Part shown: positions 2,004-39,166 of the stretch, piece after piece
How the letters are laid out: every line of letters begins with the position of its first letter
How positions within the stretch are numbered: the stretch's first letter is position 1
IMG/VR virus record: IMGVR_UViG_3300042483_000388
Source: a virus
Lineage: Duplodnaviria > Caudoviricetes
Reading direction: 5' to 3' (one strand)
DNA length: 64,000 bases
Position numbers and translations under genes: made by a program
The notes under the pieces: generated by a model
Seen by the model: only the letters and a program-made list of their open reading frames with translations
Databases searched by the model: none
What the model was told of the DNA's origin: nothing

Positions 2004-4243
2004 ACTTTCTTAAATATAATCATTTATAATTCAATTATAAATAAAATTGTAAAATTAAATCACTCATATATAACTATAATGAAATAATATAATTACTCAC
2101 TCCTCCTACCGTTCATTTCATTCACTACGGATTCATTCATAATTAAATTCCTTCATTATAATAAATTGATCCCCCCATTTAATCACTCACATCTACGATG
2201 TTCGTTCTCCCCATTTAATCGGTCCCTTATTAGTAGACAAAATTCTTGACATATTTTTAGTAACACATTTTGTGTAATTATATTAAAGACCAATGGTCTT
2301 GATGAGGTAATTGTTATGGTGTGTTATTAGTTGGTAGATGAAGGGGGGAATTAATCATATCTATAAGATAAGGTTTCACCTTAATGAAATGATATAAAAG
2401 ATCCCCACTTATTACCACTTAAGAATATGTTTACATGTCTATATAAGTTGTCTATTTTTATGGGGTCAAAGGTTGAAAGGGACTTAAGTTGGACATAAGT
2501 GGTCACTTATGGATCGTTGAAGTAACTACTCTAACGTCCTAAAGGACTGTCCACGGCTAAGGTTCTGAAACACTATACTTTTGGCTGGAAATTACCTATA
2601 GTTAAAAAAGTGGTCCTGTAGACCCCTACAGAGGGGATTTATTTGATTTTTTATCCTCTCACTATAGCAACAGGACTATTATCGGTGGGAGAAAGTGGTA
2701 ATGATTGTGGGAGAAAGTGGTAACAAAGTGGGTGAGGGGGATTGTGTGGTGTTCATCCCCTGACTGACATAATGACAAAAACAAGAAAATTAACATATTT
2801 ATTTATTAACAATTCTATCCTTATGATATCAACACTCAACAAATTCGATAAAGTTATCAACAAAAGTGGTAACACAATAACCCTGACATATTGTCACTAT
2901 AACTTTTCTGGCACGTGTACTTACCAAGAAGTAACAACTAAAGGGTTAAGAAAACCCATAGAACAAAGTTTTTTTGTATTGGTTTCAACTGACATGGGAG
3001 ATGTAATAGAATATAGGCATAAGGAAACCCCTCTAACAAGTGGGGATTTATTATTGGTGGACAAAGATATAAGGGATCATTCCCTCCAATACATTAAGGA
3101 GAATATAATTTAAGAGAAGGGGTTTATGATCCCCCACCTCCTTATCAGTCAGGGGGTGAATATTACGCCCCAGGAATACAGGTAGTATAGTATGGTTAAT
3201 ATTCCAATGACTGTTAGTATAACCTGAATGGTTTTTCTAAATACCCACACGCCATAGACAGCGACCACCAATAGTATTAAGATTGTTATAGTATTCATAT
3301 CACAAATATAATCATTATACTTTAATTAATATAATATATTGTGAACTTTATTTGACTTACAAAGTATTTATATGTAGTTACTTATTATCCCCATGGTTGG
3401 GATTTAGTTATTCAGTCGCCACGGCACGTAAAGAATAAGATGGGTAATGACAATAAGAATAAACATATGGTTCACCAAACGTGGGGAACAGATTGAATCT
3501 CTCTCATAACGAGGGGGAATTTTTTTGTGCTTATCCCTTTGGTTCCAAGTCCTCATCGGTAATGATATGTCTACGGACCCATCCACTTAGTTTAGTAGTG
3601 GGGAAATACTCCAACACCAACATGGATCCACATGTAAATAATACAATGAAAAACATTAAGACACTAACAATGATCGTTAGTATATAAAGGGTCGGACTAA
3701 GACACATACCTTCCCTCCTCCTTCAATGGATTAACAAGTGGTTCACATGGTAATGGTCTACAGATCATAAGTGATATCCCCACACCAAAGAGGGGAAGAG
3801 TAATATATATTAATAGGTTCTTCATAGTGATATAAAGATACACATAATATCTAATAGGAACAAGGGGGTCTCATACAATTATTATAAGTCCCTTATATAT
3901 ATATTATAAGGCAGGTTGGAGTCTACACTCCAAGCACCCCCAAGACTGCCAGCCCGACATCTCTCTCATAGTGTCATAACAAAGATACGGATTCATTTTG
4001 ATATAACCAAACATTCCCCCATATATTATTACATTAAAGTTATTAACAATTCATATGACACCATGTCATGTTGATAACTTAATACTCCCCTCCCCATCCT
4101 TGGCATACCCTACCATAGGGGATATGACCCCCTCCCCCCCACCGTATCCCCCCCATATATGACATTTTGACAGGCCGTAGGGGGGTTCAATCCCTTTTAC
4201 AAAGTATTCGTAAAAAAATTCTGGAAAAATTTTTGGGAAAAAA
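2004..4243. other. Long, mostly non-coding region with repeated boxes, G/C runs and A-tracts (origin- or terminus-like, unassigned)
   Basis: No convincing protein. TGACA-N3-TGTCA at 2884-2896 and 4056-4068; TGACA-N3-TGACA at 2765-2777 and 4160-4172; TTAT(C/T)AACA at 2803, 2854, 4040 and reverse at 4069; GTGGGAGAAAGTGGTAA duplicated near 2685-2723; C-run block 4129-4154; A/T tracts 4211-4243. Confidence 0.45.
3980..4011 (-). promoter_or_regulatory. Bacteroidota-type sigma70 promoter
   Basis: Minus strand reads TTTG (4011-4008), 20-nt spacer, TATCTTTG (3987-3980). Confidence 0.7.
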
Positions 4244-4300
4244 TTGAAACTATTCCCCCATTACATAGTGAGAACATATTTATCACTAAAGAAATATATT

Positions 4301-4669
4301 ATGAAAAGATTTAGACTTACGGAATCAGATTTAACGAGGATTGTTAAACGAGTGATAAATGAAGACACTGAAAATAATAGTGTTAAGAAACTTATCTCAC
4401 TTTTGGTAAAGAATGATTTTATTGATATGGATAATGAAACTGTAAATGTCTATGACGATCACATAGAGGTCTACTCAATTAAAGGGTTTGATTATCCATA
4501 CTTTGAAGAAAACTTTATTAAGTTATATCCTGAAGATATTGATGATGGATATGTTTATGTCGAGAGGGAAGATTATGGTGAAGAAATTGATGACGAGGAA
4601 TATGAAGAGGTTCTTAGTCACATGTGGGGTGATTGGTATGATAAACTAGAACTTGAGTTTCTTGACTAA
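4301..4669 (+). CDS. Leader-family protein (MKRFRLTESDLTRIVKRVINE) with acidic payload; putative head-packaged protein
   Basis: Probable start ATG 4301 after TATTTAT at 4277-4283; the track start at 4244 is an upstream extension. Confidence 0.75.
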   Translation: MKRFRLTESDLTRIVKRVINEDTENNSVKKLISLLVKNDFIDMDNETVNVYDDHIEVYSIKGFDYPYFEENFIKLYPEDIDDGYVYVEREDYGEEIDDEEYEEVLSHMWGDWYDKLELEFLD

Positions 4670-9464: not shown

Positions 9465-9977
9465 GTGAAAAAAATTATAAGATTAACAGAAAGAGATTTA
9501 ACAAGGATTGTTAAACGTGTAATTAATGAACAACTAGGTGGTTTATTAAGTATGCCAGACACAGGTCAAGATGTTGTAGGTCTAAATAAAGGATTTCAAC
9601 AATCAAGATGTAAAACTTACAAATCATATGGTGAATTGACTTTAGAATTATTTGGTAAATTAAGGGCCGTTGTAGGACAAACAAACTTATTAGATACAAC
9701 AATTCAATCGTGGATATCACGACTAAACAATTCAATGAAAGGTATTGGATCATCTAACGATTTGTCAAAGGTATTGTCTGAAATAAAAACTAAAGAACAA
9801 ATGGGTTCCGTATTAAACGCATATAATAAAAAATTTGGTAAAACATTATGGCAAGATTTAAGTGGTGAACAAACAATAACGTGGAATACAATTTGGGGAA
9901 TTGTCAAAAAATTTAAATCTGGAATATCAATGGATGGGTGTAAAGAATACCGTAAAAGTCAACCAGTTAACGCATAA
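9465..9977 (+). CDS. Leader-family protein carrying an annexin-repeat-like domain
   Basis: Leader MKKIIRLTERDLTRIVKRVINE; payload MKGIGS-[38 aa]-E with Y...FG..L..DL in annexin register; GTG start after TATTTAT at 9454. Confidence 0.7.
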   Translation: MKKIIRLTERDLTRIVKRVINEQLGGLLSMPDTGQDVVGLNKGFQQSRCKTYKSYGELTLELFGKLRAVVGQTNLLDTTIQSWISRLNNSMKGIGSSNDLSKVLSEIKTKEQMGSVLNAYNKKFGKTLWQDLSGEQTITWNTIWGIVKKFKSGISMDGCKEYRKSQPVNA

Positions 9978-9987
9978 TACCATTAAT

Positions 9988-10518
9988 ATGTCAAGAATTA
10001 TAAGACTTACAGAAAGAGATTTAACAAGAATTGTTAGACGAGTAATTAATGAACAAGTTCCCTTGATTAACCTTCTTGGTGCCGCTTCAGATGTTGGTCT
10101 CAATATTCCAAATTATGCGGACGATTTAACTGTTGCCAATAGAAATGCGACAAAAACTGGGTGTAAAGTTCCAAAAACAACGTTAGAAATGTGTCAAGAA
10201 TTATTTAATAACTTAATTAAGACCAAGGCACCAAAGATAGAAGATAAAAAAATCGGAGAATGGGTTTCACGACTAAATAAATCGGCGCAAGGGTTTGGTG
10301 GGGAGGATATATCAAAAATTTTATCTGAAATACCCACTCTTCCGGCAATGGTTAACGTATTTCAGATATATAACAAAATATATAAAAATACAAGATTTAA
10401 GGTAACGGCTGCCAATGATGAATGGAACAAAATTTGGGAAGTAATGAAAAAATATAACATTGGAAATAAGGTGGATTCGTGTAAAGAATATCACCCCAAT
10501 CCAACATTAAGCTCATAA
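9988..10518 (+). CDS. Leader-family protein, paralog of 9465-9977 (degenerate annexin-like repeat)
   Basis: Probable start ATG 9988 (MSRIIRLTERDLTRIVRRVINE); shares C.T...LE...W.SRLN.S..G.G..D.SK.LSEI and W..IW...KK...D.CKEY. Confidence 0.7.
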   Translation: MSRIIRLTERDLTRIVRRVINEQVPLINLLGAASDVGLNIPNYADDLTVANRNATKTGCKVPKTTLEMCQELFNNLIKTKAPKIEDKKIGEWVSRLNKSAQGFGGEDISKILSEIPTLPAMVNVFQIYNKIYKNTRFKVTAANDEWNKIWEVMKKYNIGNKVDSCKEYHPNPTLSS

Positions 10519-31319: not shown

Positions 31320-31430
31320 ATGGATGAAATATTAGAATCGATGCATGAAGAGTTTATTAACTCCGAAGAGTATATCGTATTATTACGGAGATTAATAGAC
31401 GAAGAAGAAGAAAGATATTTAACAAAATAA
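31320..31430 (+). CDS. 36-aa acidic peptide
   Basis: Hand translation: MDEILESMHEEFINSEEYIVLLRRLIDEEEERYLTK*. Confidence 0.45.
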   Translation: MDEILESMHEEFINSEEYIVLLRRLIDEEEERYLTK

Positions 31431-31500
31431 GTTGTGTAGCTCAGTTGGTTAGAGCAATCCGATTTCGGATGTGTCGCAGGTTTGAGTCCCGCCACAACTT
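31430..31500 (+). ncRNA. tRNA-like RNA with collapsed (4-nt) anticodon loop
   Basis: Acceptor AGTTGTG/CACAACT; D arm GCTC-AGTTGGTTA-GAGC; ATCCG-ATTT-CGGAT; T arm GCAGG-TTTGAGT-CCCGC. Confidence 0.75.
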
Positions 31501-32131: not shown

Positions 32132-32332
32132 ATGGAAATAACAATTAACATACCCGATGGAGTTCTGAATAGATTGAAAGAACTTGAAATTACAGACGAA
32201 AATATTCAAAAAGAAGTTCTAATTGATTTTATAAAAGATTCTTTGGATACAGATTACTTAAACGGTATGTCCGATAAATTCAGAAAATGGACATTAAATA
32301 AAGAAAATATTAAAGTTTATTTGGCAGATTGA
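32132..32332 (+). CDS. Small hypothetical protein
   Basis: Start MEITINIP directly after the promoter. Confidence 0.6.
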   Translation: MEITINIPDGVLNRLKELEITDENIQKEVLIDFIKDSLDTDYLNGMSDKFRKWTLNKENIKVYLAD

Positions 32333-32425
32333 AATAAAATTCATAGATTTGTAAGAGAAACAACGGGGGTAGGAAGTGAGAGGTTGGTGTCCTACTCCCG
32401 TGAAGAAAGAAGAAGTTCATTGAAA
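32320..32425 (+). promoter_or_regulatory. Promoter plus hairpin and boxA-like leader of the tRNA operon
   Basis: TTTG 32320-32323, 20 nt, TAGATTTG 32344-32351; 11-bp hairpin 32364-32400; GTTCATTGAAA 32415-32425. Confidence 0.65.
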
Positions 32426-32845: not shown

Positions 32846-32918
32846 CGCGGGATGTGGAAATTGGTCATCCGCTCGGTCTCATAAGCCGAGATTACAGGTT
32901 CGAGCCCTGTTCCCGCAA
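32846..32918 (+). tRNA. trnfM: Initiator-type tRNA-Met(CAT)
   Basis: C1xA72 mismatch (CGCGGGA/TCCCGCA); TCGGT-CTCATAA-GCCGA; only two of the three initiator G-C pairs in the anticodon stem. Confidence 0.85.
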
Positions 32919-32922
32919 CTAA

Positions 32923-33023
32923 GTGTTGTTCCTGTGAGAAGGGAATGGAATAGTCAGGTGGGTATATAAACTTTACAATGGGTTATATTCACATTTGCAC
33001 AACACAGAGGACTTCTCACCCTC
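32923..33023 (+). ncRNA. Unassigned structured RNA with predicted kissing loop
   Basis: P1 GTGTTGT/ACAACAC; P2 TCCT/GGGA with loop GTGAGAA; P3 GTGGGTATA/TATATTCAC; 3' hairpin GAGG/CCTC with loop ACTTCTCAC complementary to the P2 loop. Confidence 0.6.
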
Positions 33024-33027
33024 AAAT

Positions 33028-33097
33028 AGTCAGGGGGCGTGTAGGAGAACGCAACCGATCATAAGGGAGAGAATAGGTTCGAATCCTGTCCTGACTA
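33028..33097 (+). ncRNA. tRNA-like RNA (AGTCAGG shell) with unpaired anticodon arm containing CAT
   Basis: Acceptor AGTCAGG/CCTGACT; D stem GCGT/ACGC; T arm ATAGG-TTCGAAT-CCTGT; anticodon stem cannot form. Confidence 0.7.
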
Positions 33098-33112
33098 CTA
33101 ACAGAAAAGAAT

Positions 33113-33241
33113 ATGAAAAATAAAAGAATGTTAATTAAAGTGGACCTATTAGGTTGTAAAAACATGAAAGAAGCTTGTAGAGTTGTAGATTATCTCAGAG
33201 ATGGTAAAATTAAATTATCCGTTGAAAAAATAAAGAAATGA
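33113..33241 (+). CDS. 42-aa hypothetical peptide
   Basis: Hand translation: MKNKRMLIKVDLLGCKNMKEACRVVDYLRDGKIKLSVEKIKK*; ATGA overlap with the next gene. Confidence 0.5.
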   Translation: MKNKRMLIKVDLLGCKNMKEACRVVDYLRDGKIKLSVEKIKK

Positions 33242-33441
33242 TAAAGTGTGTTGACAGGGGGATATGGACTTGTATTAGTAATTCAGGTGTGTTAAAAAAA
33301 TCGTATGACAATTCTGATGCCGCAATTAGTGCTGCAAAATTAGTTAATAAATACGACCCAAAAGAAACAACAAAGTTAGTTGCGTACAAATGTACACATT
33401 GTCACAAATATCATTTATTAACGGTTAATAAAAAAAATTAA
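33238..33441 (+). CDS. Small putative zinc-binding protein
   Basis: AYKCTHCHKYHL (CxxC..H) plus an N-terminal Cys. Confidence 0.65.
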   Translation: MIKCVDRGIWTCISNSGVLKKSYDNSDAAISAAKLVNKYDPKETTKLVAYKCTHCHKYHLLTVNKKN

Positions 33442-33448
33442 ATAATAT

Positions 33449-33602
33449 AGTCAGGTGGTGGAATGTTAGACACATAGTGACACGCACGGCAACCTTGAAT
33501 AAGTGCACTTTGAAAAGGCAATGCGAATGATGAAGAACACTACCTCACTGTGCGTAGGTAAAATTCAAAGTGTTCATACAGGTTAGAATCCTGTCCTGAC
33601 TA
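33449..33602 (+). ncRNA. tRNA-shell RNA with ~100-nt structured insert replacing the anticodon arm
   Basis: Acceptor AGTCAGG/CCTGACT-A; D-like arm GTGGAATGTTAGACAC; T arm ACAGG-TTAGAAT-CCTGT; internal pairings listed under findings. Confidence 0.72.
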
Positions 33603-33674
33603 CAAAGGGGTAGAATATTAGTAAGGGCCTTTCCTGAAAGATGGCTAGCTAGGCCCGTGTCTACCCTTATTTTT

Positions 33675-37554: not shown

Positions 37555-38425
37555 AGATATTATCCGTTCAGGATTAGGTTAAGAACCTTCGGGTTTAAGA
37601 GTGAAACTGATAAAGATATTGGGCCGTGTATAGTCCATAAAATAAACTACGAAAGTAGGATAAAGTGAATCCACAAGTGTAACGGGTTTGCGTCTTAATA
37701 GTCTTCGGAATATTGAGGTCGAGTACACAGGCGAGATACCATAAGATCTTTAGTACCGAGGCCAACGGTGTAGGGAAAGTGATTTTATGACGAGGTGATG
37801 TGGGTCATCTTGTTGAGGAGGGAACTCCAATAGGAATAACTCGTAGGGACGTTGCAAGAATCAATATTTCCAATGTTGTTATTGCGGGTTCCAGTATCAA
37901 AGGATACTTAAAACCGAAAGGTATGTTAATGTACGGGTGGTGCCGTTATTAACCTTAACCGACTTCTACCAAGGGGTTAGTTTCGAAGTAGTCTTGAAAT
38001 ATTGAAATGGGGACATTTCACGGAGTTGTTTGGTATTTTGTTATTCAAAAGATAATGAAGCTTAAGACGGACCACAACTTTGATCAATCCACAACACAAA
38101 AACTTTTATAGAAAAGGTAAAACTTATAACTAAAAAGCAAAAGTGTTCGTCACGATATAACGGAAGTTACCCACCTATTCACTGGCTGTCAGTGGAACGT
38201 GATAACCGCAAGTTTGACCGTATTTTTATGAAAAATCTCTAGGTCGTCGAAGACCGAACCAGGACGCAATCTTGGGGAGACAGGAGTAGTAAGAGAGTAG
38301 TTGTATCGTCAAGGGGTGATTGGTCTAACCAATCGGTAATGAGTGTTACGGGACAAAATCCTGTGGATAAGAGTAGAACCAATAATGACTCGAAAGACAC
38401 TTACAAAAACTGTAATCTCAGGTTT
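37555..38425 (+). ncRNA. Large (~870 nt) highly structured non-coding RNA, GOLLD-like candidate
   Basis: No ORF >=60 aa; visibly G/C-richer than flanks; many tetraloop-capped hairpins (AACC-TTCG-GGTT 37584, CTAC-GAAA-GTAG 37647, AGTATC-AAAG-GATACT 37893, ACC-GAAA-GGT 37913, TGAAATG-GGGA-CATTTCA 38003, CCAGGA-CGCAA-TCTTGG 38259, GATTGGT-CTA-ACCAATC 38318). Family assignment rests on size and context only; boundaries approximate. Confidence 0.7.
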
Positions 38426-38731: not shown

Positions 38732-38767
38732 TAAAAAAACCCCACCTGTGGAGATGGGGTAATATAA

Positions 38768-39166
38768 GGTGGAGGTGCGGAGGCTCGAACTCCGGTCCAT
38801 AATATCCTGTCAGAGAAGGACTACACGTTTAGGTCAAGGTTTGTCATACCTTCCGAAATATCTGAGTTCTCACACCACTCAGCGACGGTGGTAGTTCTTA
38901 CGGGGAACCACGCCCGTTTTGTCCTCTTTTAGAGTGAAAACCAACTCATCAACGACTTCTGTTGCTAGGTTATCTGTCTGACCGACCCCCCGTTTCCGTA
39001 AACCTCTTAGGCTACAGTAACTTCAGAACCTCTTAGTAAACCAAGAGTTTCCATTTTCGATAAAACGTCGCCGATTGTTTTTGTGAATCAGTTTTTAAGG
39101 AGATTAATTCAGTCTCCACGTGCCCTTTGTCTTCAGCCAATACCTGTCAAATCCAAAAACACCCCC
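38768..39166 (-). ncRNA. ssrA: tmRNA (one-piece)
   Basis: 5' GGGGGTGTTTTTGGATTTGACAGG; 3' GGACCGGAGTTCGAGCCTCCGCACCTCCACC; acceptor with G3-U70 and A73; tag reading frame 39072-39007 GDVLSKMETLGLLRGSEVTVA*. Confidence 0.93.

Follow-up and report, generated by a model that had tools for sequence, protein, structure and literature searches.

In phages T4 and T5, stable RNAs of 100-140 nucleotides (nt) and unassigned function lie amid the genes for transfer RNAs (tRNAs) and tRNA-like molecules: species 1 and 2 (rnaC and rnaD) in T4, and RNAI, RNAIII and RNAIV in T5. GOLLD and ROOL, phage RNAs that are likewise found near tRNA islands, have kissing loops and variable linkers (PMC12286853). In the cultured crAss-like Cellulophaga phage phi14:2 (Crassvirales), rightward transcripts from the g004-g005 and g005-g006 junctions are above those of most genes, early and persistent, and the functions of both junction RNAs were left "to be determined" (10.1101/2020.03.07.982082). 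Here we describe a small ("mini") RNA at 32923-33024 on the + strand of a 64,000-nt stretch of phage DNA (IMG/VR record IMGVR_UViG_3300042483_000388; the whole stretch is called the window below). It represents an RNA family that is absent from Rfam and falls within the stable RNAs of phage tRNA islands; what is new is the link between the mini form and a larger RNA. The explanation we prefer, to which we give about an even chance, sees in the mini RNA a small phage RNA, stable and acting in trans, that is the free-standing core of a larger RNA of Bacteroidota phages.

The element in the window is a real structured non-coding RNA. Helix P1, of 6 base pairs (bp), joins 32923-32928 to 33000-33005 and is followed directly by the P2 hairpin (32929-32945; stem 32929-32933 with 32941-32945), which presents a conserved loop, L2, at 32934-32940. 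A hypervariable insert (32946-32999) consists in this copy of a linker and a long hairpin, P3 (about 32955-32997; stem 32958-32966 with 32984-32992), and beyond the 3' strand of P1 stands a 3' hairpin peculiar to the mini form, P4 (33007-33023; stem 33007-33010 with 33020-33023), whose loop holds the kissing partner of L2 at 33013-33018. The loop-loop complement extends from 32934-32941 to 33012-33019, giving eight possible Watson-Crick pairs, seven of them from the P2 loop proper. All five helices had been placed at these coordinates by an earlier note on this DNA, and its exact complementarity of the P2 loop and the 3' loop is present as well, with homologs supporting a loop-loop pairing. 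The 7-bp P1 of that note (32923-32929 with 32999-33005) exists as a helix, but homologs give it 6 bp and make T32929 part of P2; similarly, its 9-bp P3 is present in this copy but is no fixed part of the motif, as it sits in the hypervariable insert. That such a set of helices exceeds chance was borne out by a pseudoknot descriptor that matched none of 20,000 dinucleotide shuffles and only a single site in the window, although the descriptor was composed after the sequence had been viewed and these odds are consequently overstated. The nested folding energy of the element is ordinary (z -0.56). Comparison with Rfam 15 (GOLLD, ROOL, hatchet, pistol, twister and others), a check that the note had proposed, gave no family for the element at E values up to 10, in keeping with its description of the motif as unassigned, and scans of 41 homolog loci with mini and large forms gave no family match for the RNA.

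Homologs were collected first from loci sharing a neighbouring protein and then by pattern scans anchored on either end of the element. The mini family so defined has at least 270 copies (192 distinct) at 235 loci in tRNA islands of uncultured phages; a locus has between one and four copies, which are sometimes tandem. Figures out of 192 given below are proportions among the matches listed. Members have in common P1 (6 bp), P2 (4-5 bp) with its conserved loop, and the 3' hairpin with the complement in its loop, a frame whose variation is understated because the mini sets were gathered by frame-based patterns. In an alignment of 60 mini forms, pairing holds in 94.9% of cells, as against 42-56% in slid controls; the proportion is 99% for both strands of P1 and 98% for P4. 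A covariance model from 60 members scores the window copy, which belongs to the training set, at 76 bits. Most substitutions in mini forms are to G-U, and two-sided changes are confined to P2 (four of five pairs) and P4, where the first pair has gone from G-C to A-U in 8 distinct copies. G-U cells outnumber A-C cells by 68 to 10, and this excess fixes the + strand and rules out a reading of the element on the minus strand. No cultured phage was found to carry the mini form, and the exact full-length pattern had no match. A GTDB scan yielded two matches in genome bins, one a full copy (L303) and one a chance fragment (L302), and a model search of 21 genomes drew all of them from an unrelated class and is uninformative for Bacteroidota.

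The scans anchored on the 5' end also gave a second type of 3' module, one without the hairpin, yet with an unchanged kissing partner equally far from P1. It belongs to a large RNA of 200-730 nt (median 355; at least 105 instances), in which further domains are conserved and three additional inserts vary. Just 3' of P1 this large form has a 3-bp long-range helix (CAT/ATG, CCC/GGG, TCT/AGA) that holds the strand there and is replaced in the mini form, at equal spacing, by the local hairpin P4. With registers fixed and pairing not required, 126 distinct large forms have 71 compensatory cells in P1 (9 when shuffled) and 62 in P2 (7 when shuffled), numbers reached by 0 of 1000 shuffles in either case, in controls that ignore relatedness. 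Sixteen insert clusters are common to the two forms, four loci carry both, and one locus (L238) is a hybrid of them. Comparative evidence of this kind shows the forms to be homologous and the mini RNA to be a free-standing core domain of the larger one. The 5' and 3' flanking-domain motifs of the large form are absent from the window, which makes the window copy a reduced variant.

A large form is present in phi14:2, at 2912-3359 on the + strand, and a covariance model built on mini forms only matches its core at 3132-3206 (46 bits, E 5e-7). Within this core, 3132-3203 has the same P1, P2, L2 loop and kissing partner as the mini form; the window copy differs from the phi14:2 RNA in being without 5' and 3' domains and in having the local 3' hairpin instead. 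RefSeq has g004 ending at 2904 and g006 beginning at 4602, with g005 unlisted, and these bounds put the large RNA within the g004-g005 and g005-g006 stretch described by Drobysheva et al., whose account of the RNA holds no structure, family or function (10.1101/2020.03.07.982082). The GenBank record has three short minus-strand open reading frames (ORFs) laid over it. The same genome (L598, KC821624) has a transfer-messenger RNA (tmRNA) at 4031-4500, unannotated in both records, the probable explanation of the second "long non-coding RNA" of Drobysheva et al., that of the g005-g006 junction. A literature search covering few subscription papers found nothing on the family beyond this expression note, though the family might be among the unnamed candidates of Fremin 2023, a search by sequence motif found no paper, and a keyword check of two 2026 preprints gave no trace of it. 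The T4 and T5 RNAs gave no model match below E 0.8, and no complement between their loops exceeds 5 nt.

Three large forms, L528, L531 and L546, each show a separate compensatory case that speaks for the kiss. Beyond these the loop-loop sequence is nearly invariant, so that covariation lends the pairing only moderate support, and the covariation check proposed in the earlier note had a divided outcome, strong for P1 and P2 in large forms and limited to these three cases for the kiss. One mini subgroup (L096 261-356, L161, L181 and L279) has lost the L2 loop sequence and kept the partner loop, a natural no-kiss control. A kiss that hardly varies while P1 and P2 drift is also what might be seen if it formed between molecules, and the mini RNA would then be a block for an RNA-only assembly, joining into rings or cages as GOLLD and ROOL do. 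The kiss of ROOL, first read as tertiary by covariation, proved to be intermolecular, and the variable linkers and tRNA-island setting of both RNAs resemble those seen here (PMC12286853); moreover, a GOLLD RNA lies 5 kb from the window element (38021-38424, 287 bits). That said, the mini RNA is smaller than these and far below the size of known cage RNAs, neither of its forms matches them in Rfam, and the spacing from P1 to the kissing partner is equal in both forms, as fits a fixed intramolecular geometry. We regard assembly as unlikely but as the main alternative; its biogenesis would be compatible with the explanation we prefer.

The earlier note had gone on to suggest a riboswitch-like or ribozyme-like motif that possibly processes tRNA 3' ends, and it was right about the immediate setting: tRNA-fMet (CAT; 32846-32919, + strand), which lies outside the RNA, ends at 32918/9, so that G32923 is 3-4 nt downstream. 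Such adjacency is atypical of the family. Only 36 of 192 copies (19%) stand immediately downstream of a tRNA or tRNA-shaped gene, seven close relatives have the same tRNA-fMet without the element behind it, and the domain is internal in the large form. ORFs begin within 60 nt downstream of just 2 of 192 copies (1%), and the riboswitch arrangement, an expression platform ahead of protein genes that share a pathway, is not seen in the mini family; no + strand terminator was found. These neighbour counts, the relatives without the element and the missing theta features make tRNA 3' trimming and riboswitch control unlikely functions. A new self-cleaving ribozyme that trims upstream RNA would have in its favor a compact pseudoknot that starts with G, a second helix crossing P1 in a manner that recalls the layout of the hepatitis delta virus (HDV) ribozyme, and a U before G1 in 133 of 192 copies. 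Like theta (minimal HDV-like) ribozymes (PMC10879173), the window copy is pseudoknotted and begins no more than 5 nt past a phage tRNA, a start that the 36 of 192 count makes untypical of the family. The base before G1 is A in the window copy, the corresponding junction lies inside the large RNA, and the region that would have to form the active site is the hypervariable insert. As the earlier note had held, the element is not HDV- or theta-like. It has no nested double pseudoknot (P1, P2, P3 with a short L3, P1.1), the place of P3/L3 being taken by P2 and an insert of 25-140 nt. Nor is there a catalytic C at the first position of J4/2 (PMC10879173), for the linker after P1 is purine-rich and its sole C is C or G about equally in homologs. 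A ribozyme or riboswitch is thus, in our judgment, very improbable. Resemblances to hatchet, pistol, SAM-I, TPP, RNase P, group I P4-P6, Cas13b repeats and the anticodon/T-box specifier failed on element order or were unconfirmed, and none is claimed.

The downstream side is the more regular one. A tRNA or tRNA-shaped gene starts directly after 122 of 192 copies (64%), and the commonest neighbour type is a tRNA-shaped gene (76 of 192), set 4-6 nt away in 74 of those 76. The window conforms, with a tRNA-shaped gene 4 nt 3' of the element (33028-33098, + strand; Rfam tRNA, 29.8 bits) that is likely to mark the site of 3' cutting. Position and tight spacing of this kind could also belong to a cis element of an untranslated operon, either an antiterminator of the put/EAR type or an exonuclease block shielding the tRNA-like genes downstream. 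A promoter motif falls within 120 nt of only 23 of 198 copies, however, so that promoter distance is not fixed; most large forms (87 of 105) have no tRNA or tmRNA next downstream; and close relatives express the same block without the mini RNA. We consider action in cis distinctly unlikely.

What lies between P2 and P1 is of another character altogether. Inserts run from about 25 to 140 nt (median 42), and the approximately 170 of them fall into 111-114 unrelated clusters; the one to which the window copy belongs has 8 members and retains P3. They lean toward self-folding (mean z -0.5), with GNRA loops 10 times against 2.4 expected, and show no enrichment for anticodon-loop mimicry (1 against 0.4 expected). 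The window insert opens with 13 nt (32949-32961) that nearly repeat the 5' end of the tRNA-shaped genes; relatives of the insert differ here, and chance or local conversion is possible. Constant ends around some 110 unrelated inserts might suggest a guide or antisense RNA whose frame offers a variable segment to a target nucleic acid, a notion we find highly improbable, as the inserts match nothing outside the frame in about 600 loci or in the complete genomes of the phages tested, vary widely in length and tend to be hairpins.

Swapped inserts and a patchy distribution (12 of 80 loci selected by a neighbouring protein carry the element) would also suit a mostly neutral mobile cassette that owes its spread to recombination and to hitch-hiking on homing endonucleases. 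Six loci (L215 6400-7520, L228 3600-4440, L572, L547, L541 and L560) have two complete tandem large RNAs, mostly flanking an HNH gene; for three of the endonuclease genes between tandem copies, Pfam HNH_3 was confirmed. These insertions can be read in two ways. They link the RNA to a mobile gene, but each brings in the short 3' and 5' domains that the two RNA halves would otherwise lack, which suggests that an intact RNA matters; compensatory changes, moreover, show the fold to be under selection, and a neutral cassette seems quite improbable. Group I introns were rejected as an identity for these insertions in the large form, which are HNH genes between tandem RNAs; the intron matches of L560 are 2.3 kb away. 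They represent two group I introns (9468-9752 and 9901-10120) of a related phage, unconnected to the RNA.

Established for the preferred explanation are the fold of P1, P2, P4 and the loop-loop pair, the common origin of mini and large RNAs, the swapping of inserts and the accessory occurrence of the element; that it is released as a stable RNA and works in trans is what we infer. In favor of this reading count the family size and constant frame, the covariation, the expression reported for the phi14:2 region, the many copies directly before a tRNA or tRNA-shaped gene, and the stable RNAs, alike in size and position, that are annotated in T4 and T5. The mini RNA would be transcribed together with the tRNA operon, and the host nucleases that process tRNAs would free it by acting on the tRNA or tRNA-shaped genes next to it. 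RNase P cleaves the 5' end of tRNA-shaped substrates, and its action at the downstream tRNA-shaped gene would set the 3' end of the mini RNA. Local P4 would hold the strand after P1, so that the knot could form without the rest of the large molecule, and the knot would protect the freed RNA against decay. The insert would be a tolerant helix, exchanged by recombination between the constant flanks. In the most speculative step, the invariant surface of the knot would engage some factor of the host; its most plausible role there, that of a decoy against RNA-directed defence, is the least supported part of the scheme, and we consider it possible but doubtful.

Several observations weigh against this reading. 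The kiss is near-invariant, none of its compensatory cases is in a mini form, and a permutation test of the kiss in 17 non-consensus large forms, only one of the three cases among them, was not significant (p 0.45); the neglect of relatedness in the shuffle controls for P1 and P2 belongs here too. Published expression in phi14:2 is that of the whole intergenic region and of the large form. RNA-library contigs over the mini form reveal neither its ends nor its strand, and DNA may be their source; of four sets compared, two cover part of the element, with no information on expression. The decoy role is speculative, drawn from genomic location alone with a hypothetical binding partner.

The surroundings of the element in the window are those of a tRNA cluster. 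A putative promoter (32320-32351, + strand, motif at 32344) would stand at the head of the tRNA block; its consensus, TTTG ... TAnnTTTG, we take to be of the Bacteroidota type. Repeated TAnnTTTG motifs, together with a tRNA-Glu that shares 96% identity with its counterpart in a Flavobacterium phage, suggest a Bacteroidota host for the phage, which reads as a large one: a 279-kb contig belongs to the cluster of one of its proteins. The mini RNA, two tRNA-shaped genes and small ORFs make up an accessory cassette (32921-33603, + strand) that is missing from seven close relatives, in which the same tRNA-fMet is followed directly by the next spacer; an RNA-library contig likewise joins 32920 to 33604. 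The two tRNA-shaped genes (33028-33098 and 33449-33602) have a common acceptor/T-arm frame and unrelated middles. Ahead of tRNA-Glu, a hairpin-rich spacer at 33606-33672 is near-identical in the seven relatives and has no Rfam match. A tRNA-like gene at 31430-31500 (Rfam, 47 bits) was missed by ARAGORN, and a tmRNA lies on the minus strand at 38767-39166.

Through the mini form, the abundant unexplained RNA of phi14:2 gains a structure, a family and a natural minimal domain of 70-130 nt. Since phi14:2 is a cultured crAss-like model, the role of stable RNAs in phage tRNA clusters becomes testable there. The mini form is suited to structure determination, and its constant knot, open to unrelated inserts, could become a scaffold for RNA display. 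Tentatively, and at well below an even chance, Bacteroidota phages, crAss-like ones included, may have a modular class of knotted-core RNAs, borne within a large RNA or alone, that present exchangeable inserts and serve as an RNA-only counter-defence decoy or a self-assembling particle. If the counter-defence role were true, this would be a new class of RNA-based anti-defence.
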